DNA from: an uncultured Chloroflexota bacterium
GTDB lineage: Bacteria; Chloroflexota; UBA6077; CF-72
NCBI GenBank assembly: GCA_964435115.1
Contig: CAYSYM010000005.1
Coordinates: 7,134-71,133, forward strand
Reading direction: 5' to 3'
Length of the DNA: 64,000 nucleotides
Part shown: piece by piece, positions 5,489 to 56,685 of the stretch
Numbering within the stretch: the first letter of the stretch is position 1
Layout of the letters: the number at the start of each line of letters is the position of its first letter
Notes under the pieces: generated by a model
What the model saw: only the letters and a program-made list of their open reading frames with translations
Told to the model about the DNA's origin: nothing
Database searches by the model: none
Program-made: the position numbers and the translations under genes

Positions 5489-5568
5489 CGCGCGCCGATG
5501 ATGTAAGTAACGGCGGGAGCGCCCAACCGCTCCCCCGCAACCCAACGCAGGAAGGAAGGGTGAGAGCG

Positions 5569-6039
5569 ATGGCTATCGACCTGTGGAAGACCCGTCCCTA
5601 CGCCGCGATGTCCACGTTGAGCCAGGCGGTGGACCGCTTGTTCGACCAGGCGTTCGCCCCGTTCTACGCCAGTATGGCCCGGGAGGACGGAGGCGCCGGA
5701 GTGCAGTCGTTGCCGGTCAACGTTTGGGAGACGAACGAGGCCTACCACGCAGCCCTGATGGCCCCTGGCCTGGATGAGCAGAGCATCAACATCACCGTCC
5801 ACGACGACACGCTGTCCATCGAGGGCGAGCTGCAGTTCCAGGTGCCCGAGGGCGCGAGGACCGTCTGGCAGGAGTTTGGCCCGGCCCGGTTCCGGCGCTC
5901 ACTGCGCCTGGGGTCAGCCGTAGACGCGGCGCGGGTTGAGGCGCTGTACAAGAACGGGCTGCTCCTGGTGACCATGCCGAAGGCCGAGCACGCGAAGCCG
6001 CGGCAGATCCCGGTCAAGGTGGGCACCGCCGGCACCTAG
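5569..6039 (+). CDS. Hsp20/alpha-crystallin family small heat-shock protein
   Basis: Alpha-crystallin-domain sequence (…VNVWETNEAYHAALMAPGLDEQSINITVHDDTLSIEGE…). The ATG at 5569 has AGGAAGGAAGGG 8 nt upstream. The ORF-track GTG at 5560 abuts that RBS. Confidence 0.85.
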   Translation: MAIDLWKTRPYAAMSTLSQAVDRLFDQAFAPFYASMAREDGGAGVQSLPVNVWETNEAYHAALMAPGLDEQSINITVHDDTLSIEGELQFQVPEGARTVWQEFGPARFRRSLRLGSAVDAARVEALYKNGLLLVTMPKAEHAKPRQIPVKVGTAGT

Positions 6040-6272
6040 GTTGAGCTTAAGCCCGTGGGCGGCGGCAGTCAGGCCGCCGCCCCGGTGTGGCCCGCGTGCG
6101 TGGCCGCCAGGAACGCGAGGCGCGCCGCGCTTCGGGACAGCGGGTGGCTGGGGCCGCCCGTGCGGGCGGCCCCAGCCCTGTGTGGAGCCTGGCTCGTGGG
6201 CCACGAGCGGCGGACCCGGCGTGCGCGGGACACGCGGGTCGGAGCGGGGTACGCTCCTGGCCGACCCTGCCT

Positions 6273-6854
6273 ATGCTTCGTGGACGTTCGCGCCCGCCGC
6301 GCCTGGACCTGCTCGCCGTTGGGGACCCGGCCGCGCGGGTTGTCGTGGGGCTGGGCAATGCCGAGCGCCGTTACGCCCACACGCGCCACAACGTGGGGGC
6401 GCGGAGCGTCGCCCGGGCCATGCAGCGGCTGGGGCTCCGCCCCGGCCGGGGCGCCAGCCCGCTCCCGGGCACGCGAGCCGGCTTCGTCCTGCCAGCGGGG
6501 TTCATGAACGAGAGCGGGGCAGCGGTGCGCCGTGCCGTCGAACGCTGGCGCCCGACGAGCCAGGGGCTGCTGGTTGTGCACGACGAGCTGGAGTTGCCGG
6601 TGGGCGCGCTGCGGGAGAAGGAGGGAGGCGGCCACGGGGGGCACAACGGGCTGCGCGACATCATCGCCGCGCTGGGGACGGGCGAGTTCAGGCGCCTCCG
6701 CATCGGCATCGGGCGCCCGCCGGGCCGCATGGACCCGGCTGACTTCGTGCTGGCGCCATTCCGGCCCGACGAGCGCGCCGCCATCGAGGCGGCCATCGAG
6801 GACGCGAGCGAGCGGGTTCTCGCCTTCGTGGAGGGCGGGCCGACGCCGCCGTGA
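6273..6854 (+). CDS. pth: peptidyl-tRNA hydrolase
   Basis: VVVGLGNAERRYAHTRHNVGARSV matches the Pth signature GLGNPG..Y..TRHN.G. The length from ATG 6273 is about 194 aa, and the N-terminal extension is uncertain. The longer ORF from 6087 is an upstream GC-frame extension. Confidence 0.8.
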   Translation: MLRGRSRPPRLDLLAVGDPAARVVVGLGNAERRYAHTRHNVGARSVARAMQRLGLRPGRGASPLPGTRAGFVLPAGFMNESGAAVRRAVERWRPTSQGLLVVHDELELPVGALREKEGGGHGGHNGLRDIIAALGTGEFRRLRIGIGRPPGRMDPADFVLAPFRPDERAAIEAAIEDASERVLAFVEGGPTPP

Positions 6855-6862
6855 GGGCAGGA

Positions 6863-7492
6863 TCAGCCCAGCAGGCTGGCGAGAGCGATGAGACCGAACC
6901 CGGCGATCGCGCCGCCCGAGACACGGTTGACGAGCCGGAGCGCCGCCGGCCGCAGGCGTGAGCGAAGGTGGCTGGTGAGCGTGCTCAACCCGAGCCACCA
7001 CAGGCTGGAGCCGACGAAGAGCCCGACGACGAGCCAGGTCGTGGCCAGACGAGCGCTCCCTGCCGGGACGACGCCGAGGCCGACGAAGATGGCGCCGAAG
7101 GCGAAGATCGTCAGTAGATTCGCCAGTGTGAGCAGCAGTGTCGATCCGTAGGCCGCAGCCAGACCGGCCACCTTCACCCGTGCCGCCTCGAGCGGCGGGA
7201 CCGTGAGGAACGCGCGCGCGCCGAGCTAGCACAGGAAAAGCCCACCGGCGAGCCGCAGCCACCGCGACTGGCTCACCAGGATGTCCGAGGCGAACGACAG
7301 CCCGAACGCGGCGACGGACCCGTAGGCGGCGTCGGCGGTCGCCGCGCCGAGCCCCGAGACGAAGCCGGCCAGGCGTCCCTCGGCCAGCGTGCGCCGGATA
7401 CACAGCAGGCCGATGGGGCCGACGGGCGCCGCGATGGAGAACCCGAGTTGGACGCCCTGGAGGAACAGGCCGGCGTCCACGGGGCGCGCCAC
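6863..7492 (-). pseudogene. LysE/RhtB-family amino-acid exporter interrupted by an in-frame TAG (amber) codon
   Basis: ORFs 7226..7492 and 6863..7177 are in the same frame, separated only by a TAG at 7228..7226. Read-through gives a 209-aa protein with LysE hallmarks (SIAAPVGPIGLLCIRRTL..G). The TAG sits where homologs have Tyr or Trp (…GGLFLC*LGRARF…). Confidence 0.65.
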
Positions 7493-7695
7493 CGAGCCCG
7501 CTCACCCGCCGACGAGCAGGGTGAGGAGGAAGATCCCGGCGAGCAGGGCCGTCAGCAGGGCGAGCCAGCCGATGACGAAGGCCGCCATGGAGGCGGCGCC
7601 GGGCCGCGTGCCAGGGCCGGCCAGCCGGCGGTGTGCCCAGAACCCGGCAGCGGCGGTGAACGCGGAGGCGAGGAAGAGCGCCGCGAACGTCGCGC

Positions 7696-8517
7696 TCAGA
7701 CGTGGTGCCCCGTCCGGAGGCGATCCCGCGCGCCGGCGTCCGCGCGCGCCGTCTCGGGGACACGGGAGTTAGCCGTGAGGGCGTGGGGGCCTTCGGGGCC
7801 GTCGAGCTGGTCCCCATGCTCCGCGGCGCGAGCGGCCTGCCGGCGGGCGCGGCGGCGGGCCGGGCGGTGGCGGTGGACGTAGTGGGCGAGGGCGAGCGTC
7901 GCCAGCATCACCAGCAGCCCGACCGCGGTGGTCAGCCCCTCCGGCACGACCTCGGTGCGCTTGATGACGTTGTCGCCCAGGAACATCTCGGCGCCGGTCC
8001 AGGCGATGACGCCGGCGCCCACGTAGGCCAGCCACCAGAGGCGGTTGATGAGCGCCGCGAAGAGGCTCCCGCCAATGAGGAGGATGGCCATGCTGAGGAT
8101 GAGGCCGAACAGGAGGAGGCCGACGTCGCCGCGCGAGGCGCCCGCCACGCCGAGGATGTTGTCCAGGCTCATGATGAAGTCGGCCAGGAGGATGGTGAAG
8201 ATGGCGGCGCGCATGGTGGCGGCCACCCTGACGCCCTCGGCGCTCTCCTCCTCTGCCTTGAGGAGCTTGAAGGCGATCCACAGGAGGAGGAGGCCGCCGA
8301 CCGCCTTGAGGGCGGGGAGGGTGAGGAGGAGGGCGGCGACGGCGGTGAGGGAGATGCGCAGGGCGATGGCGGCGCCGCCGCCGAAGAGGATGGCGAGCCG
8401 GCGCTGCCGGGGGGGCAGGCGGTGGGCGGCCATGCCGATGACCACGGCGTTGTCGCCGCTGAGCACCAGGTCGATGACGACGATGCTCAGGATCGCGGAC
8501 AGGCGTTCGAGCTCCAT
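7696..8517 (-). CDS. TerC-family integral membrane protein, copy 1
   Basis: MELERLSAILSIVVIDLVLSGDNAVVIGMAA... with a TerC DN-A-V motif pair (SGDNAVVIG / SLDNILGVAG). ATG at 8517 with a GGGGGAG RBS. The upstream in-frame extension to 9492 is an artefact. The first 236 aa are identical to copy 2. Confidence 0.75.
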   Translation of the reverse strand: MELERLSAILSIVVIDLVLSGDNAVVIGMAAHRLPPRQRRLAILFGGGAAIALRISLTAVAALLLTLPALKAVGGLLLLWIAFKLLKAEEESAEGVRVAATMRAAIFTILLADFIMSLDNILGVAGASRGDVGLLLFGLILSMAILLIGGSLFAALINRLWWLAYVGAGVIAWTGAEMFLGDNVIKRTEVVPEGLTTAVGLLVMLATLALAHYVHRHRPARRRARRQAARAAEHGDQLDGPEGPHALTANSRVPETARADAGARDRLRTGHHV

Positions 8518-8526
8518 GCGGGCGGG
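7818..8526. repeat. 709-bp direct repeat, copy 1 (identical to 12974..13682)
   Basis: Identity was confirmed at several interior 60-nt stretches (7861-7920, 8101-8160, 8401-8460) and across both junctions. The sequences diverge immediately outside both ends. Confidence 0.9.
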
Positions 8527-9323
8527 CTCCCCCTTCTCAGAAGCTGGCGGGTCCTCGGCGGTGTGGCTCCTCAGAACGAACCGTCCGAGCGGAGTGCAGC
8601 ACCGCCGCCCGCTCGCGAGCAAACGGGTGGGCGCCGGCCGGCGCTGCCCGCACGGGCGCGAGCGCGCCGACCGCCCACCCCGGCGGTTGGCCAAGAGGCG
8701 ACCGGCTCCATTGTGCCGGAAGGTCGACCCTTGGTGCTCGCTTCGGATCTGCCCGCGACTGGTGGCGCGCCGGGCGACTCGCGCTCTCGGCCCAACGGCG
8801 TGAGCGGGGGAGCGCGTCCGTGGTGCAGGGCTCGGCCCGCCAGGGTCGACCGCTACACGACTCCTCGGCTGTGCCCCACGCCTCGCTCGAACGCGGGGCC
8901 TACCGGAGCGGCGGCGCCGGACTACCCGCGGAGGGCGTCCGCCCAGGCCCGGGCCAGGCGCTGCGCTTCGCGCGGCGAGGCCAGGCGCGCCTCGGCGCCC
9001 ACCCGGACAGCGGTGGTGAAGAGCGCGCCGAGCTCGGCCAACTGCGCCAGTGGGCGCCGGCCGGGGGTGGGTGCGGCCGCCCGACGCGCGGGGCCGCGGA
9101 GGCCAGCGTGGGAAGCGGCGGGAGCAGCTGCAAGTGTGGTCACAGTGGGGGTGTTCCTTATGCGGAGAGATCGGCTGCCTCTGGATTGAGCGTAGCGCCG
9201 GCGCGGCTCGGGCGCAGCGCGCGCGAGGCGGGCCGGCTGGGAGTCCTTTCGTCCCGGCCGGCGGGCGTACGGGAGGCCCGCACGCGCCCGTGCGAAACGG
9301 CAGGCCGGGCGGGCGGGCAGGAC

Positions 9324-9352
9324 TTGACAACGGGGTGGGGGCGCGCGTAAAC
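9324..9352 (+). promoter_or_regulatory. sigma70-like promoter candidate (TTGACA-17-GTAAAC) about 300 bp upstream of tctC
   Basis: A perfect TTGACA hexamer at 9324, which is rare at 70% GC. The -10 element is weak. Confidence 0.2.
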
Positions 9353-9652
9353 AGGGGTCTGCTGGCCGGACCGCTTCGCTCACCGCCGTGCAGGGACCCC
9401 GCAGGCGCCAGCTCGCCCGTCGCCTGTAGCGGCGCGAGGCGCTCCGCGGAGTCCGTCCTATGGCACCCGCGAGGGCCCGGCAAGGCACTCACGAACAGGG
9501 GAGGATGAATCGGTTACCGAACGCCACGTCCCGAGGTCCGAGGTAGTCAGCCGATTCGCGTGGTCGGCGACGAGTAGCTCTGAGAGCCTCGATGGTTCGC
9601 CCGCCAACGCCGCCGGACTGTTGAGTGTATCCAGATTGAGGGGGAACCCCGA

Positions 9653-10834
9653 ATGACGTTTGCGAAGCTGGGTGCGCGTCTTGCCGCCGGGAGCGCGGCG
9701 CTCGCCCTTCTCGCTGCCGCCTGCGCCCCGGCAGCCCAACCATCGCCCACGGCCACGACCGCGCCGGCGAAGCCCGCCGCGCCGACGGCGGCCCCGGCGG
9801 CGTCGCCGAAGCCGGCGGCCGCCGCGAGCCCGGCGGCGTCGCCCAAGCCGGCGGCGGCAGCGAGCCCGAGCCCGGCCGCGGCGGCCAAGCCCGGGGCCGG
9901 TGAACTGGGCCAGGTGCCGCGGGCGCCGTCGGCCGCCAACATCCGGGGCGAGCCGCCCGCGCAGCCGATGGAGTTCGTCATCAGCACGAGCCCCGGCGGT
10001 GGCTCCGACATCTACGCCCGCTTCATGATCGGGATCATCCAGAAGTACAACCTCTCACCCCAGCCGGTGCTCCCGATCAACAAGGACGGCGGCGCGGGCG
10101 CCGTGGCCATGCAGTACCTGGACGGCAAGAAGGGCCAGCCCGGGGAGTTCATGATCACGCTCAATAGCTACCTCACCACCCCCATGCTGCAGAAGCTGCC
10201 CTTCAAGTCAGACAGCTTCACCGGCGTCGCCCTGATGGGGCTGGATTCGTTCTTCCTGTGGGTGCCGGCCGACAGCCCGTTCAAGACGTTCAACGACTTC
10301 CTGACGGCCGCCCGCAACGAGTCGCTCACCGTCGGCGGGACCGGCTCGAAGCAGGAGGACGAGATCCTCTTCAAGTCGATCGAGATGCGGGCGCAGACGA
10401 AGCCGTTCAAGTACGTGCCGTTCAGCGGCGGTGGCGCCGTCGCGACGGCCCTGGCAGGAGGCCAGGTGCAGGCGACGGTCAACAATCCGAGCGAGGCTCT
10501 GCCCTTCTACCCGGACAAGGCCCGACCGCTGGCCGCCTTCCTCGACGAGCGCTCGCCCGCCTTTAAGGACCTGCCGACTGCCAAGGAGCTCGGGCTGAAC
10601 CTCACCTACTTCAACATGCGCGGCATCGTCGCCGCGCCCGGGATCTCCGCCGGCCACCGCGAGTGGCTGACCGGTCTCATGCGTGAGGTCTACGTCAGCC
10701 CGGACTGGCAGGAGTTCCTCCAGAAGAACGCGCTCGACGCGCAGTTCCTGAGCGGCGCCGACTTCGAGAAGTTCCTGGTCGACTTCGAGAAGCTCAACCG
10801 CGACGTGATGACGGAGGCCGGGTGGCTGCAGTGA
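9653..10834 (+). CDS. tctC: tripartite tricarboxylate transporter substrate-binding protein (TctC/Bug family), lipoprotein
   Basis: Lipoprotein signal (LALLAAAC), a Pro/Ala-rich linker, then the TctC-family core (…EFVISTSPGGGSDIYARF…GGGAVATALAGGQV…). RBS GAGGGGGAA. Confidence 0.8.
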   Translation: MTFAKLGARLAAGSAALALLAAACAPAAQPSPTATTAPAKPAAPTAAPAASPKPAAAASPAASPKPAAAASPSPAAAAKPGAGELGQVPRAPSAANIRGEPPAQPMEFVISTSPGGGSDIYARFMIGIIQKYNLSPQPVLPINKDGGAGAVAMQYLDGKKGQPGEFMITLNSYLTTPMLQKLPFKSDSFTGVALMGLDSFFLWVPADSPFKTFNDFLTAARNESLTVGGTGSKQEDEILFKSIEMRAQTKPFKYVPFSGGGAVATALAGGQVQATVNNPSEALPFYPDKARPLAAFLDERSPAFKDLPTAKELGLNLTYFNMRGIVAAPGISAGHREWLTGLMREVYVSPDWQEFLQKNALDAQFLSGADFEKFLVDFEKLNRDVMTEAGWLQ

Positions 10835-11340
10835 CCGATCCCAGCCCGGACCCGGTGGTCGTCGGTGGGACGCGGCGCGGCTGGGAGATCGGCGCCGCCG
10901 CTGCCCTCCTGGCCCTCGCCCTCGTCGTCATCATGGAAAGCCTCCGGATCGGGGCCGGCTACACCTTCGCCGGCCCCGCCACCGGGTTCTTCCCGTTCGT
11001 GGTCGCTGTGCCGCTGGTGGTGACCGCGGGCACCGCCCTCTGGCAGGCCCTGCATCTCCGCAGCCAGAAGCCGATCTTCGACTCCGCGGACGACGTCGTC
11101 GAGTTCGTGAAGGTCGGCGTGCCACTCGCGGTGGCGGTCATCTCGATCGCCTGGCTCGGCTTCTACCTGGCCACGGCGGCCTACATCGGGTTCTTCACCG
11201 CCTGGTACGGGCGCTACCGCTGGTGGGCGGTGCTGCTGGCCGCGCTCCTCTCGCCGGTCGCCTTCTACGTCGTCTTCGAGCGGATGTTCTCGATCTCGCT
11301 GCCGAAGAGCCTCTTCTACAGCCCTGCCATCCCCTTCTGA
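10822..11340 (+). CDS. tctB: tripartite tricarboxylate transporter small membrane subunit TctB
   Basis: About 170-aa 4-TM protein between tctC and tctA. Its GTG start overlaps the tctC end by 13 nt. Confidence 0.65.
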   Translation: MAAVTDPSPDPVVVGGTRRGWEIGAAAALLALALVVIMESLRIGAGYTFAGPATGFFPFVVAVPLVVTAGTALWQALHLRSQKPIFDSADDVVEFVKVGVPLAVAVISIAWLGFYLATAAYIGFFTAWYGRYRWWAVLLAALLSPVAFYVVFERMFSISLPKSLFYSPAIPF

Positions 11341-11359
11341 CTGAGACGGAGCGCTAGCC

Positions 11360-12886
11360 GTGGACGCACTCGGCGGTCTGGCCCTGGGCTTCAACCAGGT
11401 CCTGCAGCCTTTCAACCTGTTGATGATTTTCGTGGGGGTGGCGCTGGGCCTCGTCATCGGCGTGCTGCCCGGCCTGGGCGGGACCAGCGGCGTGGCGATC
11501 CTGCTGCCCGTCACGGTACTGATCGCCCCGAACGCGGCGATCATGCTCCTGGCCGGGATCTACTGGGGCGCCCTGTTTGGCGGGGTCGTCACGTCCATCC
11601 TCTTCAACATCCCCGGCGAGCCGTGGTCGGTGGCCGTGATGTTCGACGGCCACCCGCTGGCGAAGATGGGCAAGGCCGGCCTCGCCCTGACGGCGGCCTT
11701 CCTGGCCTCCTTCCTCTCGTCGATGGTGGCGAACGTCCTGTTCACTTTCTTCGCCATCCCGCTGGCGGAGTTCGCGCTCAAGTTTGGCCCGCCCGAGCTC
11801 TTCGCCGTGCTCCTCCTCTCGTTCGCGACGTTCGTCGGGCTGGGCGGTGGCTCCCCGATCAAGACCATCAGCATGGTGAGCCTGGGCTTCCTGCTCGCCG
11901 CGGTCGGCCTGGACATCGTCACCGGCCAGCCGCGCCTGACGTTCGGCGTCATCGACCTGCAGCGCGGGATCGACTTCGTCCCGGTGGCGATCGGCCTCTT
12001 CGGCATCGGCGAGCTCCTGGGCGCGGGCAGCGAGGCGAAGCAGAAGCACGAGTCGGTGGCGTACCGGATGGGGCTGGCCGACCTGAAAGAGGCGCTCCTG
12101 GTGCACTGGCGGCACGCCCGGCTGCTGATCGTCAACACGCTCGTCGGCTTCTGGGTAGGCGTCATGCCCGGGACCGGGGCCACGCCGGCCTCGTTCATCG
12201 GCTACGGCATCGCCCAGCGCTACTCGAAGCACTCGGACCGCTTCGGCAAGGGCGAGATCACCGGGGTGGTCGCCCCGCAGGTGGCGGCCAATGCCGCCGG
12301 CATCGGCTCCATCCTGCCGATGATCACCCTCGGCGTGCCCGGCTCGCCGACGGCGGCCGTCATCCTGGCCGGTCTCTTCATCTGGGGTCTGAACCCGGGC
12401 CCCACGCTCTTCATCCAGAAGCCGGACTTCGTGTGGGGCTTGATCGCCAGCCTCTACGTCGCCCACTCGCTGGCCTTCCTGCTCACCATGTTCGCCGTCC
12501 CGCTCCTGGCGGCGATCATGCGCGCGCCGTTCGCCCTCCTGACGCCGCTCATCGTCCTGATCAGCGTCGTCGGCGCCTACGTGATCAACAACTCGATGCT
12601 CGACGTCGTGATCATGCTGGTTTCGGGCGTGGTCGGCTTCTTCCTGGTGCGGCTCAAGTACCCCCTGGCGCCCCTGGTGGTCGCCCTGGTGCTGGGCGGG
12701 CCGACCGAGAACGCGATGCGGCAGACGCTGATCATGAGCGATGGCTCGCCGCTCATCCTCTTCGAGCGGCCGATCGCCGCCGGCCTGACCCTGCTCGCCC
12801 TGGCGCTCTTCCTGCTGCCGGCCCTCGGACCGCTGTTGCGGCGGGTGCGGGGCCGGACCGCCCGCGTCGAGCCGGCCATCACCTGA
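11360..12886 (+). CDS. tctA: tripartite tricarboxylate transporter permease TctA
   Basis: 508-aa polytopic membrane protein with a TctA-family N-terminus (…LMIFVGVALGLVIGVLPGLGGTSGVAILLP…). Confidence 0.85.
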   Translation: MDALGGLALGFNQVLQPFNLLMIFVGVALGLVIGVLPGLGGTSGVAILLPVTVLIAPNAAIMLLAGIYWGALFGGVVTSILFNIPGEPWSVAVMFDGHPLAKMGKAGLALTAAFLASFLSSMVANVLFTFFAIPLAEFALKFGPPELFAVLLLSFATFVGLGGGSPIKTISMVSLGFLLAAVGLDIVTGQPRLTFGVIDLQRGIDFVPVAIGLFGIGELLGAGSEAKQKHESVAYRMGLADLKEALLVHWRHARLLIVNTLVGFWVGVMPGTGATPASFIGYGIAQRYSKHSDRFGKGEITGVVAPQVAANAAGIGSILPMITLGVPGSPTAAVILAGLFIWGLNPGPTLFIQKPDFVWGLIASLYVAHSLAFLLTMFAVPLLAAIMRAPFALLTPLIVLISVVGAYVINNSMLDVVIMLVSGVVGFFLVRLKYPLAPLVVALVLGGPTENAMRQTLIMSDGSPLILFERPIAAGLTLLALALFLLPALGPLLRRVRGRTARVEPAIT

Positions 12887-13673
12887 GAGCGCGCCAGCGC
12901 TGCGGGTTTCCTCTCTCCGCTGGCTCGGGCGTCTGGGGCAGACGAGCCTCGGCGGTACTCTCACGCCCGGTTCGCTCCGCGGCGCGAGCGGCCTGCCGGC
13001 GGGCGCGGCGGCGGGCCGGGCGGTGGCGGTGGACGTAGTGGGCGAGGGCGAGCGTCGCCAGCATCACCAGCAGCCCGACCGCGGTGGTCAGCCCCTCCGG
13101 CACGACCTCGGTGCGCTTGATGACGTTGTCGCCCAGGAACATCTCGGCGCCGGTCCAGGCGATGACGCCGGCGCCCACGTAGGCCAGCCACCAGAGGCGG
13201 TTGATGAGCGCCGCGAAGAGGCTCCCGCCAATGAGGAGGATGGCCATGCTGAGGATGAGGCCGAACAGGAGGAGGCCGACGTCGCCGCGCGAGGCGCCCG
13301 CCACGCCGAGGATGTTGTCCAGGCTCATGATGAAGTCGGCCAGGAGGATGGTGAAGATGGCGGCGCGCATGGTGGCGGCCACCCTGACGCCCTCGGCGCT
13401 CTCCTCCTCTGCCTTGAGGAGCTTGAAGGCGATCCACAGGAGGAGGAGGCCGCCGACCGCCTTGAGGGCGGGGAGGGTGAGGAGGAGGGCGGCGACGGCG
13501 GTGAGGGAGATGCGCAGGGCGATGGCGGCGCCGCCGCCGAAGAGGATGGCGAGCCGGCGCTGCCGGGGGGGCAGGCGGTGGGCGGCCATGCCGATGACCA
13601 CGGCGTTGTCGCCGCTGAGCACCAGGTCGATGACGACGATGCTCAGGATCGCGGACAGGCGTTCGAGCTCCAT
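12879..13673 (-). CDS. TerC-family integral membrane protein, copy 2
   Basis: Same N-terminal 236 aa as copy 1. The C-terminal tail differs (…AAERTGRESTAEARLPQTPEPAERGNPQRWRALR). ATG at 13673. Confidence 0.75.
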   Translation of the reverse strand: MELERLSAILSIVVIDLVLSGDNAVVIGMAAHRLPPRQRRLAILFGGGAAIALRISLTAVAALLLTLPALKAVGGLLLLWIAFKLLKAEEESAEGVRVAATMRAAIFTILLADFIMSLDNILGVAGASRGDVGLLLFGLILSMAILLIGGSLFAALINRLWWLAYVGAGVIAWTGAEMFLGDNVIKRTEVVPEGLTTAVGLLVMLATLALAHYVHRHRPARRRARRQAARAAERTGRESTAEARLPQTPEPAERGNPQRWRALR

Positions 13674-13682
13674 GCGGGCGGG
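12974..13682. repeat. 709-bp direct repeat, copy 2 (identical to 7818..8526)
   Basis: See copy 1. The offset between copies is 5156 bp. Confidence 0.9.
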
Positions 13683-13806: not shown

Positions 13807-14373
13807 TTACAGGTGCGCCCGACTGCGTCCATCACGCCTGGTGCCATGCTTGCCGGGCCGCGCTCTGGACGGCGGGCACCCCGCGCTGGGGCCACGGAGG
13901 AGGCGAGCAAGACGCACCTCCAGATAGGCAAACCCGGCCCCGAAGGCCGAGCCGATGAAGGCCTGATAGGCGAGGAAGCTCACGAGGGAGACTGGATCGG
14001 CCAGGTATCGCGCGGCGATTCCGACGATGGCGAAGTACCACAGGATGGCGAACGGGTAGGCAATGACCCAATACAGGACCACCTTGGCGGCCAGACTGCC
14101 GCGCAATTGGCTCGGCCGCTCAGACCGCCAGAGAGCGGGGAACCGGCGCCGCAGGAGGTCGAGGAGCAGCCCGCCCGTGCCGAACGGGAGTGCCGACCCG
14201 AAGAAGCGCGCCGGGTCAATCGCGCTCTGTGAGCTCAGCGCGCCGGCGCTGAGGAGGGCGCCGAGGGCCACGCCGCAGCAAACCCCCGTCAGGGTGCCTG
14301 AGTAGCGCAGCACCTGCCCGCGAAGATCGGCGCGCGTGCCTCCGACCGGGGCCTTCCTAACGGCTATCAGCAT
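13807..14373 (-). CDS. hypothetical membrane protein
   Basis: 188-aa ORF with three or four hydrophobic segments. No recognisable family. It lies upstream of TerC copy 2 on the same strand. Confidence 0.35.
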   Translation of the reverse strand: MLIAVRKAPVGGTRADLRGQVLRYSGTLTGVCCGVALGALLSAGALSSQSAIDPARFFGSALPFGTGGLLLDLLRRRFPALWRSERPSQLRGSLAAKVVLYWVIAYPFAILWYFAIVGIAARYLADPVSLVSFLAYQAFIGSAFGAGFAYLEVRLARLLRGPSAGCPPSRARPGKHGTRRDGRSRAHL

Positions 14374-14601: not shown

Positions 14602-16128
14602 TCAGACGTCGGGCACGGCGCCCAGCACGAACACCGAGTAGAACAGGCCCCCCAGGTAGAAGACCGCTCCCGCCGCGAGGACCACGTTGGTCAGGAGGTT
14701 GGGGCGGATCTTCTTGGGCAGGACGAAGTTATTGACCGCTAGTAACAGGAGGGAGTACGAGCCCATCACCAGCGACGACAGGAACGCCAGCATGTCGAGG
14801 AGGAAGCCCGGGCCCGCGGCGGATCCCAGTAGCACCATGATGATGCCGACGACGACGACGAAGTAGAGGAATGCGTAGTACCACTTGCTCATGTGCCAGC
14901 GGCGTGCTCCGGGTGCGAAGTACCAGGTCATGTCTGCCTGGCCACGCGCGAACGCATCGAAGATCCCGAAGCTCATCTTGAAGCCCACGACGCCGATGAA
15001 CAGGTAAAACAGGGCACTGGCCGCCGCGCCGCCCGCCCTACCGAACGCGCCCGCCATAGCCGCCAGCGCAGCTGTCTGGCTGCCCTCGCCGATCGCCGCC
15101 CTCGCTGACGGGTCGATGTTCGCGGCCGCCATCGCCAGCACCGTGTAGATGATCGTCGTGAGCATGGTGATGCCCCAGAAGAGCACCAGGGCATCGAATA
15201 GGTTCCACTGCCGCCACCGCCGCCACGTCGCCATCTCCAGCGGGTTGTCTGTGTCGAACGTGTGGCCGCGGTCGGGCATCGATTCTTCTTCGCCCGTGAG
15301 CCAGCTCGTGATGCGACCGGCGTACTTCCCCATCCCCGCGCCCTTGTCGCGCAGGTAGAGCGTGTACCACATCTGCTGCATCCCGGACGGGCCGGCGAAC
15401 GCGATGGAGGCGACGATGAGCGGGAACCAGCGCTCACTCAGGAGCGTGCCGGGGTTCGTGGCCCAGGTGGACATGCCGACGAGTCCGGTGAAGGTGTCTA
15501 CCAGGTCGCGGAAGCTCCCGACGAAGGCGGCGATGCCCGCAGCGCCGATTACCATGATGCTGATCAGCACTCCGAGTACCGTCTCCACCACGGAGTAGAC
15601 CACCGGGGCGAAGGTGAGCACCACGCCGATCAGCACAATGCCGCCGATGGCGAGCGCTTGCCACGGGATGCCAGTGAAGGCGGACCATGACTGCGCCCCC
15701 AGGGAGATGTGGCCGGGCCAGATGTAGACCAGCATGGCGACGACCCAGAAGTACCACATGATCGCGGGGTGGATCCGCGCCGCGCCGAAGAAGATGCTCT
15801 CCCCGGTGGCGAGCGCGTAACGGCCCATCTCCAGCATCACGAAGAGCTGGATGGTGACACCGATGAGGAACAGGATCCGCACGTTTGGGCCGAAGACCAG
15901 CACCAGGCGCGGCCACATGTAGCTCTCGCCCAGCCCGACGCCCAGGGCGGTCAATACCAGCCCGGGGCCAAGGATATGGACAGGGTTCCAGGCTTCAGGG
16001 AGCGAGCGGATCGGTAAGGACGCGCCCCTCCCCAGAGGAATGGCGCGCTCCTCGGCTGAAGGCGCGCCTCCCACCTCCCGTGGCGCACCCACCGGAATCG
16101 CTGGTCCGCTCAGCGTTGCATCAGACAT
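14602..16128 (-). CDS. NRAMP-related (MntH-like) polytopic metal-ion transporter
   Basis: About 11-12 TM segments. LGPGLVLTALGVGLGESY...MLEMGRYALATGESIF parallels the NRAMP TM1-TM3 architecture but lacks a DPGN motif. The start at ATG 16128 (MSDATL) has a GGAAGGGGAGGGGA RBS. The ORF-track start at 16212 is an upstream extension. Confidence 0.65.
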   Translation of the reverse strand: MSDATLSGPAIPVGAPREVGGAPSAEERAIPLGRGASLPIRSLPEAWNPVHILGPGLVLTALGVGLGESYMWPRLVLVFGPNVRILFLIGVTIQLFVMLEMGRYALATGESIFFGAARIHPAIMWYFWVVAMLVYIWPGHISLGAQSWSAFTGIPWQALAIGGIVLIGVVLTFAPVVYSVVETVLGVLISIMVIGAAGIAAFVGSFRDLVDTFTGLVGMSTWATNPGTLLSERWFPLIVASIAFAGPSGMQQMWYTLYLRDKGAGMGKYAGRITSWLTGEEESMPDRGHTFDTDNPLEMATWRRWRQWNLFDALVLFWGITMLTTIIYTVLAMAAANIDPSARAAIGEGSQTAALAAMAGAFGRAGGAAASALFYLFIGVVGFKMSFGIFDAFARGQADMTWYFAPGARRWHMSKWYYAFLYFVVVVGIIMVLLGSAAGPGFLLDMLAFLSSLVMGSYSLLLLAVNNFVLPKKIRPNLLTNVVLAAGAVFYLGGLFYSVFVLGAVPDV

Positions 16129-16392
16129 ACGTCGACTCCCCTCCCCTTCCACCTGCTCAGGGTTCCCGCCTAATGGCTCGTGATGGACGAGGCTGGAGAT
16201 GCGCCCCCGCACGGCACAGCCCCAGCCTCGTCCAAGGCAGCGCCGGGGTCGGGGGAGCTAGAGGCATGGGCCCCGGTGCCGTCGAGACCGCCCCGGTCTC
16301 ACGAGGCCGGTCGATCCGCATTGTCACCTGATGTCCAGATGGGCAGGTGAAAGCGGCCTTAAGGACACCTGAAGGGGGCCTGAACGCCGCAC

Positions 16393-19342: not shown

Positions 19343-20563
19343 TCAGCCTTCGAGGAGCAGCGCTTCTGGGTCTTCGATCAGCTCCTTGACGCGCACCAGG
19401 AACAGCACCGCCTCGCGCCCGTCGACGAGGCGGTGGTCGTAGGTGAGGGCCAGGTACATCATCGGCCGGATCACCACCTCGCCGCCGCGGGCCACCGGCC
19501 GCTCCTGGACGCGATGCATGCCCAGGATGCCCACCTGGGGTGGGCTGAGGATGGGCGTTGACAGGAGCGAGCCAAAGACCCCGCCGTTGGTGAGCGTGAA
19601 GGTGCCGCCGCGCAGGTCCTCCAGCGTCAGCGTGTTCGAGCGCGCCTTCTCCGCGAGCGTCGCGATCTCCTGCTCGATCTGGGCGAACGTCTTCCGATCC
19701 GCGTCGCGCACCACGGGTACCACCAGCCCGCCCTCGGCGCTGACGGCGATGCCGATGTCGTAGTAGTGCTTCAGCACGATCTCGTCGCCCTGGATCTCGG
19801 CGTTCAGGAACGGGAAGGCCTTAAGGGCGCCCACGGCCGCCCGGGTGAAGAACGCCATGAACCCGAGGCTGACACCGTGGCGGGCCTGGAACGCCTCCCG
19901 CCGCCGGGTGCGCACTGCGAGCACGGCGCTCATGTCCACCTCGTTGAAGGTGGTCAGCATGGCGGCCGTCCGCTGCGCTTCGAGCAGGCGCTGGGCGATC
20001 GTCTGGCGCCGCCGCGTCAGGCGCACCCGTGCTTCGCCGCGCGGGTCGGCGGGCCGGGCCGGCGCCGGCGTGGGGGGCCGCGGGGCCGCCGACTCCACCG
20101 CGGCGGGGGTGAGCGGGGCCTGCTGCTCGAGGTGTCGCTGGACATCCGCGCGCGTCACGCGCCCGGCGGTCCCGGTGCCGCCCACGCGGGCCAGGTCGAT
20201 CCCGTGCTCTTCGGCCAGGCGCCGCGCCACCGGCGAGGCGTGCGGCCGGTCCTGCCCGTCCGGCCGGAGCGCCGGCGCGCTCTCGTCCACCGCGGCCCGG
20301 CCCGTGGCGGCCGGGAGTGGACCGGCGACCTCCCCGAGCGTCGCCAGCAGCTCGCCGGGGTGGACCGTGGTGCCCTCCGGGCGCTCGATCCGCTCCAGCG
20401 TGCCGGCGCGCTCGGCCGCGACGTCCACGTTCACCTTCTCGGTCTCGAGCTGCACCAGCGCCTCGCCCGCCTCCACCCGCTCGCCAACCCGCTTCAGCCA
20501 CGACCCGACCGTCGCCTCGACCACGGACTCGCCCAGCGCGGGCACCCGCACCTCAACCGGCAT
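19343..20563 (-). CDS. sucB: dihydrolipoamide succinyltransferase (2-oxoglutarate dehydrogenase E2)
   Basis: Lipoyl domain (…[10 protein letters not shown]…), a Pro/Ala linker, and a catalytic domain ending …[11 protein letters not shown]. It lies directly downstream of sucA. Confidence 0.8.
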
Positions 20564-20598
20564 GGCTTCTCACTCCCTCTTGCGCCCACCCACCTGCG

Positions 20599-23424
20599 TC
20601 AGCCCCCGGCCGGCTCGGCAGCCGGCTGGGACGCGAGCGGCGCCTCCACGATCCGCCGCTGCGTGGCGGCGTGGGCTTCCGGCCAGCCCTCGGCCGGGCT
20701 GGCGCTTGGCGGCCGGCCCACGTACTGCAGGGTCCGCCCGGGCCCGAGGAGCTCGCGCAGGAGCGGCTCGACGTAGGTCCAGGCGCCCATGTTGCGTGGC
20801 TCTTCCTGCAGCCAGAGCACCTCGGGCGCCCCGGCGTACGCGTCGAGCACGGCGCGCACCTCGGCCGCGGGGAACGGGTAGAGCTGCTCGACTCGTACCA
20901 GCGCCAGCGACGCGGCGGGAGGGCGCGCGCGCTGACCCGCCACGTCGGCCCAGATCTTCCCGCTACACAGCACGAGGCGCCGCACCCGGGCTGGCTGCGC
21001 GGCTGCCCGCGCGTCGTCCAGCACTGGGTGGAACCTCCCGCCGGCCAACTCCGGCGCCCGGGCGGCCGCCAGAGGGTGGCGCAGCAGACTCTTGGGGGTA
21101 AAGACGACGAGTGGACGCGGCTCAGCGCGCAGTGAGGCGGCCTGGCGGCGCAGCAGGTGGTAGTACTGGGCGGCCGTCGAGCAGTTGGCTACGCGGATGT
21201 TGTCCTCCGCGGCGAGCTGGAGGAAGCGCTCCAGACGCCCGCCGGAGTGGTCCGGGCCCTGGCCCTCCCATGCGTGCGGGAGCAAGAGGACGAGACCAGA
21301 GCGGAGGCCCCACTTGGCCTCGCCGGACACGATGAATTCGTCGACGACCACCTGCGCGCCGTTGATGAAGTCGCCGTACTGCGCCTCCCAGAGCACGAGG
21401 GTGCCGGGGTGGTGGACGCTGTAGCCGTACTCGAAGCCCAGGGCCGCGTTCTCCGAGAGGGGGCTGTTCCACGCCTCGAATGGCGCGTGCTCGCCCGGCA
21501 GCTCGCGCAAGGGCGTGAACGCCGCGCCGGTGCGGGCGGCGAAGAACGTGAGGTGGCGCTGGCTGAACGTCCCGCGGACTGTGTCCTGGCCGGCCACGCG
21601 GATGGGGATACCCTGGCCGAGGATGGTGGCGAACGCCAGCGCTTCCGCGTGGCCCCAGTCAATCGGGGCATCCGGGTCCTCGAAGGCGGCCCGGCGGCGC
21701 TGGATGGGCCGCGCCAGCTTCGGGTTGAGCGCGAAGCCCTCGGGCAGGCGAGTCAGCGCCTGGTTCAGCTCGCGTAGCGCCTCGAGCGAGACCGGCTCGA
21801 GCGCGGTGGAGGCGGCCGGCTTCCCATCCGCTCGCTCGTCGGCACCCGGCGCGGGCCGCCGCGCGGCCAGCGCCTGCTCGGCGCGCACGGCTCCGGGCCC
21901 CGGCCGCTCGTCCGCCCGGGCCCGGGCGAGCACCGACTCGCGGATGCGCTGGAACTCGTCCAGGCCCGCCTGCAGCAGGGCGTCTGGCTCGCCAGCGCCC
22001 ACCACGCCGCGCCGCACCAGCTCCGCGGCGAACTGCTCGCGGACCGTCGGCAGCTCGCGGATGGTGGCGTACATGCGGGGCTGGGTGAACGACGGGTCGT
22101 CCCCCTCATTGTGCCCCCAGCGGCGGTAGCCGATGAGGTCGATCAGGAAGTCCTTCTTGAAGCGGGTCCGGTACGCGACCGCCAGCCGGGTGGCCGCCAG
22201 GCAGGCAACCGGGTCGTTGGCGTTCACGTGGACGATGGGGATCTCGAAGCCCTTGGCCAGGTCGCTCGCGTACAGGGTGGAGCGACCGTGGGTGGGCTCC
22301 GTCGTGAAGCCAAGCTGGTTGTTCGTGATCACGTGCAGGGTGCCGCCCGTGCTGTAGCCCGCCAGGCGCGACAGGTTGAGCGTCTCGGCCACCACCCCCT
22401 GCCCGGGGAAGGCAGCGTCGCCGTGGATCAGCACGGCCAGCGCGGTCCCGTGGTCGTTGGCCGCCCGGGCCATCCCCTCGACGACCGGGTCCACGGCCTC
22501 CAGGTGGCTGGGGTTGGGCACCAGGATGACTGCCACTACCCCGGCGTGGTCGGCCGGGTAGGCCCGCCGCCCGCCGGCGTGGTACTTCACGTCGCCCGCC
22601 CAGCCCTCACCGGCGCTGCCGGACGGAGCGGCGGGCGCGACCGGCGCCCAGCCCTCGAACTCGGCCACGATCCGCTCGTACGGCTTGCCGAGCACGTGGG
22701 CCAGCACGTTCAGGCGGCCGCGGTGCGCCATGCCGAGCGCAATCAGGCGAATGCCCTCCCCGCCGGCGCGGTCGATCAGCTCGTCGAGCATCGGGATCAG
22801 CATGCCCAGACCCTCGATGGAGAACCGCGTCTGCCCGGGGTAGGCACGCTGGAGGAAGCGCTCGAACGCCGACAGCTCGGTCAGTCGATCAAGCAACGTC
22901 CGCTCGTCGACCGGGTCGGCCGGCGGGCGGAAGCGCTCTTCCTCGACCGCCGCGAACAGCCAGGCGCGCTCCTCGGGTACCTGCACGTGGCTGAACTCGT
23001 AGCCGGTCGTGGCGCAGTAGATCCCCCACAGCCGCTGGATCGCCTCCGCGGCACTGCGTGCCGCCCGCGCCGTGGGCCCACCCACCACGCTGGCCGGTAC
23101 GAGCGCCAGGTCGTCCTCGCGGACCCCGTGGCTCGTCAGGTCTAGCTGGGGGTCGCCGGGAGGCGGCGACCCGAGGGGGTCGAGGTGGGCGCCGCGGTGC
23201 CCGTAGAGCCGAATGGCCTGGGCCACGTCCGCGGCCGCGGCCGCCACGGAGACGTCCAGGCCGGCGGTGACCTCCGGTGGCGCGCCAGGCGCCGGGCCGG
23301 CACTGAGCGAAGCGAGCGCGGCCCGGGTCGCTGCGTCCAGCGCCTGCGGGTCGCGCCGCGCCCGCTCCCGCAGCTCCTCGACGTACCCGGCGTTCGGCCC
23401 GTAGAACTGCTCCAGATCGTCCAT
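20599..23424 (-). CDS. sucA: 2-oxoglutarate dehydrogenase E1 component
   Basis: The canonical N-terminus MDDLEQFYGPNAGYVEEL…, a TPP-binding region, and 941 aa. Confidence 0.9.
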   Translation of the reverse strand: MDDLEQFYGPNAGYVEELRERARRDPQALDAATRAALASLSAGPAPGAPPEVTAGLDVSVAAAAADVAQAIRLYGHRGAHLDPLGSPPPGDPQLDLTSHGVREDDLALVPASVVGGPTARAARSAAEAIQRLWGIYCATTGYEFSHVQVPEERAWLFAAVEEERFRPPADPVDERTLLDRLTELSAFERFLQRAYPGQTRFSIEGLGMLIPMLDELIDRAGGEGIRLIALGMAHRGRLNVLAHVLGKPYERIVAEFEGWAPVAPAAPSGSAGEGWAGDVKYHAGGRRAYPADHAGVVAVILVPNPSHLEAVDPVVEGMARAANDHGTALAVLIHGDAAFPGQGVVAETLNLSRLAGYSTGGTLHVITNNQLGFTTEPTHGRSTLYASDLAKGFEIPIVHVNANDPVACLAATRLAVAYRTRFKKDFLIDLIGYRRWGHNEGDDPSFTQPRMYATIRELPTVREQFAAELVRRGVVGAGEPDALLQAGLDEFQRIRESVLARARADERPGPGAVRAEQALAARRPAPGADERADGKPAASTALEPVSLEALRELNQALTRLPEGFALNPKLARPIQRRRAAFEDPDAPIDWGHAEALAFATILGQGIPIRVAGQDTVRGTFSQRHLTFFAARTGAAFTPLRELPGEHAPFEAWNSPLSENAALGFEYGYSVHHPGTLVLWEAQYGDFINGAQVVVDEFIVSGEAKWGLRSGLVLLLPHAWEGQGPDHSGGRLERFLQLAAEDNIRVANCSTAAQYYHLLRRQAASLRAEPRPLVVFTPKSLLRHPLAAARAPELAGGRFHPVLDDARAAAQPARVRRLVLCSGKIWADVAGQRARPPAASLALVRVEQLYPFPAAEVRAVLDAYAGAPEVLWLQEEPRNMGAWTYVEPLLRELLGPGRTLQYVGRPPSASPAEGWPEAHAATQRRIVEAPLASQPAAEPAGG

Positions 23425-49876: not shown

Positions 49877-50641
49877 CTACGGCTCCTGGCCGTGCACGCG
49901 CGTGGCCGCCCGGTCTGTGGCCGTGAAGCACTCGCGCACGTAGGCCGCCGCGCGCTCGGCCGTCTGCTCCACCATCGCCGTCGCCCGCTCGGCGGTGGCC
50001 CCGCGCAGCGTGCCGTACCAGCCAGTGGGCGTAATCTCGCGGATGTCCAGGACGATCGGGTACGCGGCGCGACGGCGGCGCAGGGCGTCGAGCTCGGCGG
50101 CCGGCGCCGGCGGGCCCGAGTTGTCCGCGCGCTCGAGGTGGACCAGCTCGGGCCGGTCGGCCAGCACCGCCAGGGCCTCGATCTCCCCGCCGTGCGTCAG
50201 CCCGACCTCCTGGCCGCACAGGTCGTGCGCGACCCACATCGCCTGGACGACGACGAAGCGGACGCGCGGCGCGTGGCGGCCCTGCACGGCCGCGGCGGCC
50301 TGGTTGATCGCTGCCGCGTTCCCCTCGTGCCAGTTCACCAGCACGAACCGTCGCGCCCCGTGCTGGACCAGGCTCTCACACACGTCCTCTACGACCGCCA
50401 CCAGCGTCGAGGGCCGGAGTGAGAGCGTGCCGGCGAATGGCAGGTGGATGGGCGTGACGCCCAGCGGGCCGACGGGCGCCACCAGGGCATCGAGGTGCTC
50501 GGCCAGGCGCCGGGCAACCGACTCGGCTGCGTAGCTGTCCGTGCCGCAGGGCAGGTGCGGGCCGTGCTGCTCCACGCTGCCCAGCGGCAGCACCACCGTG
50601 CCCGAGCGCTGCAACAGGCGCGCGGCGTCCGGCTGCGTCAA
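49877..50641 (-). CDS. creatininase-family amidohydrolase (paralog 1)
   Basis: …LPLGSVEQHGPHLPCGTD…VLVNWHEGN… is the creatininase/MftE-family signature. Confidence 0.8.
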   Translation of the reverse strand: MTQPDAARLLQRSGTVVLPLGSVEQHGPHLPCGTDSYAAESVARRLAEHLDALVAPVGPLGVTPIHLPFAGTLSLRPSTLVAVVEDVCESLVQHGARRFVLVNWHEGNAAAINQAAAAVQGRHAPRVRFVVVQAMWVAHDLCGQEVGLTHGGEIEALAVLADRPELVHLERADNSGPPAPAAELDALRRRRAAYPIVLDIREITPTGWYGTLRGATAERATAMVEQTAERAAAYVRECFTATDRAATRVHGQEP

Positions 50642-50681
50642 CTCCTGCAGGACGCGGGTCGCCAGCGTCGGTTCCTCCAGC

Positions 50682-51419: not shown

Positions 51420-51486
51420 GTTTGGATCCAGAGTACTCGCGCGGTGGGCGGGGCGCAAGCAGCCGGCCGCGTGCCCGGGTGGCGGA

Positions 51487-56410: not shown

Positions 56411-56532
56411 GTGCGCAGCCGGGTGGGGGCCGGCGCACCCCGCCTGGGCAGCGACGCACGGCCTGCCTCGGCGTCGCCACTTCCCACCCCGGCATTCGGC
56501 CCCAGCCCGCCGCTTGCAGGTCGACCATGGCG

Positions 56533-56685
56533 GTAGTACTGTATCCGAACATGCATCCAGCCCATCCCGCTGAGCCGGCCGGGCCGCTCGTCGACGAGGC
56601 GGCCGACGTCCTCCGCGCGGCCATCGTCAGCGGCCGCTCGCGGTCCGGCACACGTCTGGTCCAGGAGCCGCTGGCCGATCCCTGA
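56533..56685 (+). pseudogene. duplicated 5' fragment of the GntR regulator gene (about 145 bp including upstream DNA), with the fragment ORF running ATG 56551 to TGA 56685
   Basis: MHPAHPAEPAGPLVDEAADVLRAAIVSGRSRSGTRLVQEPLADP* is a near copy of the first 40 aa of the GntR at 51419 (MHPARPADPAGPLVDEAADVLREAIVSGRLRPGTRLVQERLAE…). The upstream AGTACT…ATCC…AAC ATGCAT context is shared. Confidence 0.5.

Follow-up and report, generated by a model that had tools for sequence, protein, structure and literature searches.

Concerted evolution by gene conversion is exemplified by tufA and tufB in enterobacteria. In Campbell-type single-crossover integration, or insertion-duplication, an insert comes to lie between two identical direct copies of a chromosomal sequence. 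Tandem duplication with a junctional insertion, whether by end joining or by template switching of the MMBIR type, has been documented mostly in the stress-induced amplification of E. coli and in eukaryotes (PMC1428787). Amplicons bounded by direct repeats include the amplifiable units of DNA (AUDs) of Streptomyces and the IS-flanked, RecA-dependent duplications of, for example, Burkholderia thailandensis (PMC9946442; PMC5869714), and recombination between direct repeats is itself established knowledge (compare PMC1428787 and PMC9946442). Our study compares with these systems a locus of an uncultured Chloroflexota bacterium, in which two copies of a TerC segment bracket a transporter operon. 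The features below lie in the window, which is the whole 64-kb stretch of DNA that was analysed.

5560-6039, strand not given: hsp20, which together with pth forms the conserved 3' neighbourhood of TerC
6087-6854, plus strand: pth, peptidyl-tRNA hydrolase (Pfam)
6863-7492, minus strand: LysE/RhtB-type exporter gene (translation, weak TIGR00949 match, strong GC3 periodicity)
7505-7702, minus strand: gene for a small membrane protein, lying directly 3' of TerC copy 1 and conserved next to pth in the closest relative
7696-8517, minus strand: TerC/YjbE gene copy 1, 273 aa (PF03741, TIGR03717)
7818-8526, minus strand: repeat copy 1, from TerC -9 to codon 233, an exact match to 12974-13682
8527-9652, no strand: spacer of 1,126 bp separating TerC copy 1 from tctC; neither a gene nor an RNA was detected
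9653-10834, plus strand: tctC, substrate-binding subunit (PF03401, E = 6e-24)
10822-11340, plus strand: tctB, small membrane subunit (PF07331, E = 9e-16)
11360-12886, plus strand: tctA, large permease subunit (PF01970, E = 9e-136)
12879-13673, minus strand: TerC/YjbE gene copy 2, 264 aa (PF03741, TIGR03717)
12974-13682, minus strand: repeat copy 2, 709 bp, an exact match to 7818-8526
13807-14373, minus strand: mem188, a 188-aa membrane protein immediately upstream of TerC copy 2 (ORF and GC3 signal)
14602-16212, minus strand: Nramp-family divalent-metal transporter (NF037982, E = 8e-103)
16130-16390, minus strand: conserved non-coding leader, the orthologue of which precedes the single TerC of the closest relative

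The sequence-only reading had reported identical 709-bp direct repeats in the two TerC genes, and this was borne out, as the two segments match at 709 of 709 sites with no mismatches and with sharp edges. They are spaced 5,156 bp from start to start, which leaves 4,447 bp between them, and self-BLAST found no other perfect repeat within the window. The content of the repeat, given earlier as 236 codons, is corrected here to a 9-nt 5' leader, 233 TerC codons and 1 nt. Beyond the edges, in-register identity is at the random level for this composition (20-42 % per 50 nt), and gapped local alignments of the flanks (150-400 nt on either side) scored no better than shuffles (z < 0). This, along with the unlike C-terminal tails, agrees with the earlier claim that the 3' tails and all flanking DNA differ. 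Chance is not at issue for 709 identical bases. By inference, the absence of differences places an upper 95 % bound of ~0.4 % on divergence, and it would reflect either a very recent event or gene conversion keeping the copies identical.

Both TerC genes matched PF03741 (E = 3e-40, 138 bits against a cutoff of 27.8) and the YjbE subfamily model TIGR03717 (194 bits against a cutoff of 134.8), and scores above these curated cutoffs assign them to the YjbE subfamily of putative Mn2+ transporters. The 40-codon tail of copy 1 (7699-7817) is coding-like in its GC content by codon position (0.87/0.59/0.90). The corresponding values for the 31-codon tail of copy 2 (12882-12973) are flat (0.73/0.70/0.73), which is consistent with read-through into non-coding DNA, and copy 2 overlaps the tctA stop by 8 nt. 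A Shine-Dalgarno-like GGGGGAG was found at -10 to -16 of copy 1, just beyond the repeat edge. Both copies may be functional, under different upstream DNA, because in each the conserved TerC domain is complete and a Shine-Dalgarno-like motif is retained. The yybP-ykoY Mn2+ riboswitch is typical, yet not obligatory, upstream of many YjbE-type TerC members; none was found in Rfam (gathering cutoff or E ≤ 1) upstream of either TerC copy or of the Nramp gene.

The 4.4 kb between the repeats had been read as a complete tctCBA set with about 1.1 kb that is gene-less, and the Pfam matches and the GC profile agree. The genes tctC, tctB and tctA are contiguous and co-directional, and each scored above its Pfam cutoff, so that they form a complete tripartite tricarboxylate transporter, TctCBA; the N-terminal linker of tctC is Ala/Pro-rich and contains a tandem repeat. 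In the spacer, GC content is flat by codon phase over the longest such stretch in the window. Its 10 ORFs gave no Pfam match, its 188-aa ORF had no homologue among 1.84 billion representatives, Rfam returned no credible match (the best being a chance-level miRNA, E = 0.44), the RNA fold z was -0.8, and no similarity was seen to any related locus compared.

Direct repeats that bracket an accessory transporter operon absent from the nearest relative could suggest a site-specific mobile element, with the tctCBA block as a genomic island or translocatable unit targeting TerC and the repeats as its attachment or terminal sequences. This reading is close to refuted and is given almost no probability, as integrase, transposase, relaxase and replication genes are all absent, the Pfam matches of the insert are to tctCBA only, no tRNA is present, and viral and plasmid collections gave no match. 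Usual att sites are also far shorter than 709 bp. Two specific forms were rejected: an integrase-mediated island or prophage with att repeats, for want of a site-specific recombinase gene, and a composite transposon or IS-bounded unit, as the flanking repeats encode TerC (PF03741, TIGR03717) and no transposase.

Comparison with relatives provided the evidence for how the locus arose. In the closest relative found (L161; TerC 79 % identical at the amino acid level, proteins ~77-80 %), a contig that is collinear with the ~0.8-30 kb part of the window carries a single TerC at this locus and tctCBA is absent. This TerC is surrounded by pth-hsp20-FGGY on the 3' side and by RR-HK-amylases on the 5' side, and in the window these ancestral flanks are divided, with the small TM gene, pth and hsp20 beyond copy 1 and the leader, RR and HK beyond copy 2. 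The comparison of syntenic loci that had been proposed as a check therefore yielded the same flanks without the insert, which points to a lineage-specific insertion or duplication. The small membrane-protein gene matched a 66-aa gene of L161 (63 % identity over 62 aa, E = 4e-16), and the leader matched by blastn (84 % over 82 nt); the leader, orthologous to the pre-TerC region of the relative, sits upstream of the string Nramp-mem188-TerC copy 2, in which the Nramp gene runs in the same direction as TerC. Profile searches found no family match for mem188. TerC-pth(-hsp20) adjacency recurred in 11 further related loci, and two TerC genes around tct were seen in none of ~170 related loci, so the case that would have spoken for ordinary divergence, that of relatives with the same two paralogues at less than 100 % identity, was not encountered.

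A neighbour-joining tree placed the repeat core as sister to the L161 TerC (distance 0.19), with L001 and L081 next at 0.25-0.27 and the tct-linked and pth-linked TerC classes at 0.32-0.36; on this placement, the repeat core is the resident orthologue. The empty site in L161 does not date the event, as its proteins are only ~77-80 % identical and further gene insertions set it apart (Nramp-mem188, LysE versus MFS, and sucAB). The immediate flanks of either TerC copy gave no significant alignment to the L161 TerC flanks, and the assignment of ancestral junctions is for this reason based on the order of the genes, on 6 nt that match in the Shine-Dalgarno region and on the phase composition of 30-40 codons.

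These comparisons also bear on a different history, in which an old TerC pair around tctCBA, arising from an earlier duplication or from an acquired TerC-tctCBA (or Nramp-mem188-TerC-tctCBA) module that landed beside the resident gene, had its differences in the homologous segment erased by repeated RecA-mediated conversion. In three Limnocylindria-like contigs (L004, L083 and L084), TerC and tctA are arranged tail to tail, which resembles copy 2-tctA (the overlap is 4 nt in L004 and 8 nt in the window), and the copy 2-tctA junction could for this reason be old rather than new. Identity also stops, at -9 and codon 233, close to where the gene itself begins and ends (orthologues end at 229-255 aa), and copy 1 has its own Shine-Dalgarno-like motif just outside the repeat. 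The decayed-looking spacer and the in-frame TAG at 7226-7228 of the LysE/RhtB-type gene, a probable pseudogene, suggest that the neighbourhood is not brand new. However, no relative carries a diverged pair, L161 has one TerC here, and the tree, with the core as the resident orthologue, shows no two paralogue lineages. The closest tct relatives are not TerC-linked either, since none of the nearest tctA relatives (95 %, 82 % and 73 % at the amino acid level, the first being L167) adjoins TerC, and homology to the 95 % relative ends ~8-15 nt past the tctA stop. The repeat, moreover, extends past the conserved TerC core both ways, covering the 9-nt leader and a variable, non-conserved Arg/Ala tail, where independent genes would lack the homology for a conversion tract; breakpoints of the copy-paste kind account for this extent better than does conversion, limited by homology, between genes acquired independently. 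An old pair under conversion is, on this evidence, rather unlikely.

The structure is known from a single contig (117,842 bp) of one assembly, and exact 709-bp repeats are difficult for short-read assemblers. The true chromosome might then read L1-TerC-L2, while the 5.2-kb TerC and tctCBA unit would form a circle of its own or a variable tandem array, or would occur in a sub-population only. An arrangement L1-R-M-R-L2 would give the same assembly graph as L1-R-L2 with a circular R-M, and the assembler would have walked a graph loop once; in a second version, polishing would have made two similar copies look identical. Each of these scenarios still requires genuine reads joining TerC to both insert ends, and by this graph logic there must be a molecule in which TerC flanks tctCBA at either end, or else a circular or tandem form equivalent to it. 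The insert holds no replication or recombination gene and has no match in plasmid or viral collections, as noted above, which argues against an artefact. The perfectly sharp repeat edges between unrelated flanks are unlike the homogenization of diverged paralogues by polishing, and each L161 orthologue gives one uninterrupted HSP against the window, with none frameshifted, which indicates good base-level assembly quality. An assembly or population artefact is unlikely, and all its versions taken together are given a low probability.

We consider it somewhat more likely than not that the structure records a real insertion-duplication, specific to this lineage, at the place where this uncultured Chloroflexota bacterium has its resident TerC gene (for a YjbE-type Mn transporter). 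The ancestral order would have been leader ... TerC - small TM gene - pth - hsp20. A 5,156-bp unit, made of TerC from -9 to codon 233, ~4.4 kb with tctCBA and the 1.1-kb spacer, would have been gained once over this ancestor, giving the present order of 5' context - TerC copy 2 - tctA/B/C - spacer - TerC copy 1 - 3' context. The unit could have arrived by a Campbell-type single crossover between the chromosome and circular DNA carrying a TerC segment, or a tandem duplication of the TerC segment could have captured a tct fragment at its junction by end joining or template switching. Both routes would yield exactly the observed topology, which cannot separate them. Of the Campbell-type footprint proposed in the sequence-only reading, the A-B-A anatomy and the split ancestral flanks stand; the integration of a circular molecule does not follow, as capture of an insert during tandem duplication would lead to an identical arrangement. 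Neither a donor nor a circle nor a further insert copy came to light.

Because 709 bp of perfect direct homology would be a substrate for known direct-repeat recombination, the tctCBA unit is predicted to be liable to RecA-dependent deletion, with scarless return to a single TerC, and to tandem amplification. Such reversion or amplification would matter for strain heterogeneity and for coverage anomalies in metagenome-assembled genomes. A bolder and very doubtful extension is that the 5.2-kb unit is a recombinase-free, self-contained 'portable homology' cassette that is integrated at some times and excised as a circle or amplified in tandem at others, solely by way of host RecA working on a segment of a housekeeping gene. 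If true, the copy number of the cassette could be switched reversibly, which would link the uptake of tricarboxylates (metal-citrate) with Mn export, and the recurrent TerC-tctA tail-to-tail pairs in other Chloroflexota would represent the spread of the cassette.

Compared with known systems, the locus resembles Campbell-type integration in that its insert lies between two identical direct copies, of which one has the ancestral 5' context and the other the ancestral 3' context, and pop-out would restore the gene exactly. It differs in having no known circular donor, vector or origin, with an insert of a transporter operon and non-coding DNA only, and the Campbell route would here have to account for the natural formation of a circle bearing a promoter-less, 3'-truncated piece of a resident gene. 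Tandem duplication with junctional insertion would give repeat-insert-repeat in one event, with breakpoints that are arbitrary with respect to homology (-9 and the variable tail), although the documented cases come mostly from E. coli and eukaryotes rather than from Chloroflexota. As in amplifiable units of DNA, direct repeats several hundred bp in length, which are substrates for RecA, enclose a unit of a few kb (4,447 bp); in contrast to AUDs and IS-flanked amplicons, the unit is present once in the assembly, a housekeeping gene takes the place of an IS or dedicated repeat, and the organism is an uncultured Chloroflexota. Perfect identity roughly confined to the coding region between unrelated flanks recalls tufA/tufB, whereas here the second copy is missing from relatives, only 4.4 kb separates the copies, and identity enters a non-conserved leader and tail. 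If real, the locus is a natural example, in an uncultured high-GC Chloroflexota, of an accessory transporter operon lodged in a housekeeping locus without inactivation, since the whole functional part was duplicated, so that the native upstream region remains with one TerC copy and the native 3' end with the other. The outcome would be a pair of identical Mn-transporter genes that differ in the DNA upstream of them. The structure is of a known kind and reveals no new mechanism or element type; it is an ordinary but probably genuine recombination footprint.

An exact direct repeat of 709 bp was delineated at 7818-8526 and 12974-13682, with a start-to-start spacing of 5,156 bp, which bore out the observation, made from the sequence alone, that two TerC genes have identical cores. 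Self-BLAST found no further perfect repeats in the 64-kb window. Immediately beyond the repeat limits the in-register identity falls to 20-42% per 50 nt, and gapped local alignments of the flanks (150-400 nt on each side) scored below the mean of shuffled controls, so that the surrounding DNA is indeed different and has no residual homology. Each repeat begins 9 nt before the ATG (8517 in copy 1, 13673 in copy 2) and stops after the first base of codon 234. Beyond the conserved core of TerC it takes in a 9-nt leader and the variable first codons at one end and a non-conserved Arg/Ala tail at the other. With 0 differences in 709 bp, the divergence of the copies is expected to lie below about 0.4% at 95% confidence. 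The features of the locus are as follows.

Features at and around the repeat pair (window coordinates)
6863-7492, minus strand: LysE/RhtB-type exporter gene, of strong coding periodicity, interrupted in frame by a TAG (7226-7228)
7505-7702, minus strand: small membrane-protein gene, the first left of copy 1, 63% identical in L161, the locus of the closest relative
7696-8517, minus strand: TerC copy 1, 273 aa, with a 40-codon tail past the repeat (PF03741, E = 3e-40)
8527-9652: spacer, 1,126 bp, with flat GC phase
9653-10834, plus strand: tctC, above Pfam cutoff
10822-11340, plus strand: tctB, above Pfam cutoff
11360-12886, plus strand: tctA, above Pfam cutoff
12879-13673, minus strand: TerC copy 2, 264 aa, with a 31-codon tail unrelated to that of copy 1 (PF03741, E = 3e-40)

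NCBIfam, applied to copy 1, assigns the shared core to the YjbE subfamily (TIGR03717, 194 bits; cutoff 134.8); TerC proteins have a role in manganese export and in the metalation of secreted enzymes (PMC10550928). When set against those of 14 close TerC homologues, neither C-terminal tail displayed convincing homology. Tail 1 ends at the start of the small membrane-protein gene and its GC by codon position is coding-like (0.87/0.59/0.90), while tail 2, which overlaps the tctA stop by 8 nt, is flat (0.73/0.70/0.73), as read-through into non-coding DNA would give. The protein records of both TerC products and of TctC all derive from the same 117,842-bp NCBI contig.

Between the repeats, the proposed TctCBA system is complete, with all three subunit genes recognized. 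A foreign composition of tctCBA was rejected, as its GC3 of 0.95-0.98 matches that of its neighbours and its lower total GC is due to membrane-protein composition. A 36-nt tandem repeat at 9786-9868 (2.1 copies, 92% matches) encodes an Ala/Pro-rich N-terminal linker of TctC, and TctC homologues are alignable only from approximately residue 100 onwards. GC by codon phase was chosen as the coding indicator because the G+C content of the window is 71-79%, and by this measure the spacer is the window's longest stretch with flat phase. A Pfam scan of ten spacer ORFs at E ≤ 1 gave no match, a search of 1.84 billion representative proteins found no homologue of the longest protein-like ORF (188 aa), and tblastx and blastn against all fetched loci and the window itself returned GC-rich noise only. 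The sole Rfam match in the spacer was a miRNA family at chance level (E = 0.44), and the description of this segment as gene-poor stands. Rfam gave nothing credible across the whole window at the gathering threshold or, at E ≤ 1, upstream of both TerC copies and the Nramp gene; no tRNA was found, and the 383 nt upstream of copy 1 folded no better than shuffles.

The relatives of this locus are Chloroflexota MAGs. No TerC closer than ~70% amino acid identity was present in species-representative genomes or JGI metagenomes; the protein search gave P0122 as the closest (77% over the full query, 79% over the best alignment of 215 aa and 80% at the nucleotide level), located on an 819-kb contig of GCA_040960095.1 (L161). 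The window is collinear with L161 from ~0.8 to 30 kb, the order in L161 being phosphorylase, two amylases, kinase, regulator, leader, one TerC, MFS gene, small membrane-protein gene, pth, hsp20 and FGGY kinase. Neither tctCBA nor a second TerC occurs there, which answers the syntenic comparison that the sequence-only reading had suggested. The immediate flanks of copy 1 and copy 2 gave no significant alignment to L161. Other differences in content are the Nramp-mem188 pair (mem188 being the 188-aa membrane-protein gene directly upstream of copy 2) and a YetF-domain gene versus a TatA-like one. The window also holds sucA/sucB-like genes (2-oxoglutarate dehydrogenase E1 and E2; 19343-23424, minus strand) between kinase and amylase genes that adjoin in L161 without this pair.

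Two TerC genes at one locus were found in none of the 160 TerC loci surveyed for context, and the case named as refuting, relatives with the same two paralogues at <100% identity, was thus not encountered among them. TerC and pth are arranged tail to tail in 11 of the 160, usually with hsp20 next; three, which are Limnocylindria-like, have TerC in that arrangement with tctA-tctB-tctC: L083, L084 and L004 (5272-9592), where the TerC and tctA stop regions overlap by 4 nt. In L157, TerC is directly downstream of tctA. Adjacency of TerC and a TTT transporter recurs in Chloroflexota, but the window's closest TctA relatives lack it. The relative at 95% (L167; 91% nucleotide identity) loses similarity to the window 8-15 nt past the tctA stop, where a terminator-like hairpin follows; those at 82% and 73% have a Na+/H+ exchanger and a ferredoxin-type gene next, respectively. 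A tctA with 91% nucleotide identity belongs to a population in SRR28401802. For TctC, one relative reached 85%. Two ancient paralogue lineages, pth-linked and tct-linked, were first suspected and then rejected on the evidence of L161 and a neighbour-joining tree. The tree places the window core next to the L161 gene as its sister (distance 0.19), both in a group with L001, L081 and the tct-linked genes; the remaining pth-linked genes make up the sister clade of that group. What was repeated is thus the resident orthologue.

The LysE-type gene, left of which lie pth and then hsp20, is probably a real pseudogene of recent origin: the alignments of L161 orthologues to the window all consist of a single unbroken HSP, which indicates good base quality, so the stop is probably real. 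The other window orthologues are intact, and in L161 the LysE slot is filled by the MFS transporter. Rightward from copy 2 follow mem188, an Nramp metal transporter (NF037982, E = 8e-103), a conserved leader, the YetF-domain gene and an OmpR-type response regulator with its kinase. The Nramp importer gene ahead of copy 2 makes the locus a metal-homeostasis cluster; that uptake of metal-citrate by TctCBA is functionally tied to it is speculation. A conserved non-coding element (16130-16390, minus strand) upstream of Nramp-mem188-TerC copy 2 adjoins the regulator/kinase pair and matches L161 at 9580-9790, upstream of the single TerC there (84% over 82 nt). Within it are direct repeats of box-like form at an 11-nt period (GTTTAGGC / CTTTTAGGC / CTTTAAGGC / CTTTCACC) and a hairpin (GAGGCTGG...CCAGCCTC). 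The element had no match in Rfam and may serve as a promoter bound by a regulator or as a metal-transporter leader not described before. Further right, two inverted repeat pairs were seen, 51292-51467 / 56505-56678 (176 bp, 85% identity) and 50012-50644 / 53428-54057 (about 640 bp, 65% identity), the latter probably inverted paralogous genes.

By gene order, the neighbours conserved on the 3' side (small membrane gene, pth, hsp20) follow copy 1, and the conserved upstream leader, regulator and kinase lie beyond copy 2. The motif AGGACA at -11 to -16 is common to copy 2 and L161 and absent from copy 1. Individually these lines are weak; together they suggest a native gene made up of the core with the upstream region of copy 2 before it and tail 1 after it, in which case both novel junctions would face the insert. 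Given the tct-linked TerC genes of other lineages, the copy 2-tctA junction may be older.

The topology is that of an insertion-duplication. A single event could have produced it, either by single-crossover integration of a circle carrying a TerC segment, or by tandem duplication of the TerC segment with a 4.4-kb tct fragment captured at the junction. The Campbell-type integration first proposed thus agrees with the topology but is not singled out by it. A repeat reaching beyond the conserved core agrees better with copy-paste breakpoints than with conversion between genes acquired independently, as their homology would stop sooner; gene conversion may still be keeping an older duplicate identical. 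Perfect direct repeats this long are good substrates for RecA. For comparison, see PMC1428787, PMC9946442 and PMC5869714. RecA-driven deletion would restore one TerC, preceded by native upstream sequence and ending in its native tail, and yield a 5,156-bp circle; unequal exchange would multiply tctCBA along with one copy of TerC.

Writing L1 and L2 for the outer flanks, R for the repeat and M for the insert, only L1-R-L2 plus a circular or tandem R-M would give the same graph as L1-R-M-R-L2. We consider such an artefact or population mixture improbable, since the contig needs read support at all four junctions; from this requirement and the sole graph alternative, some molecule must have TerC on both sides of the insert. 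Such an artefact is further opposed by an insert with no replication or recombination gene and no match in plasmid or viral collections. A mobile-element reading was rejected on the latter result and for lack of a recombinase.

Among known systems, the insertion-duplication has the structure of Campbell-type insertion-duplications and of amplifiable units bounded by direct repeats. It lacks what defines integrase-borne islands and IS-bounded units, as it has no recombinase and its repeats code for TerC, and what defines conserved paralogue pairs, as relatives carry one TerC copy. A known type of rearrangement gains a new example here, from an unusual organism and with the repeat formed by a housekeeping gene.
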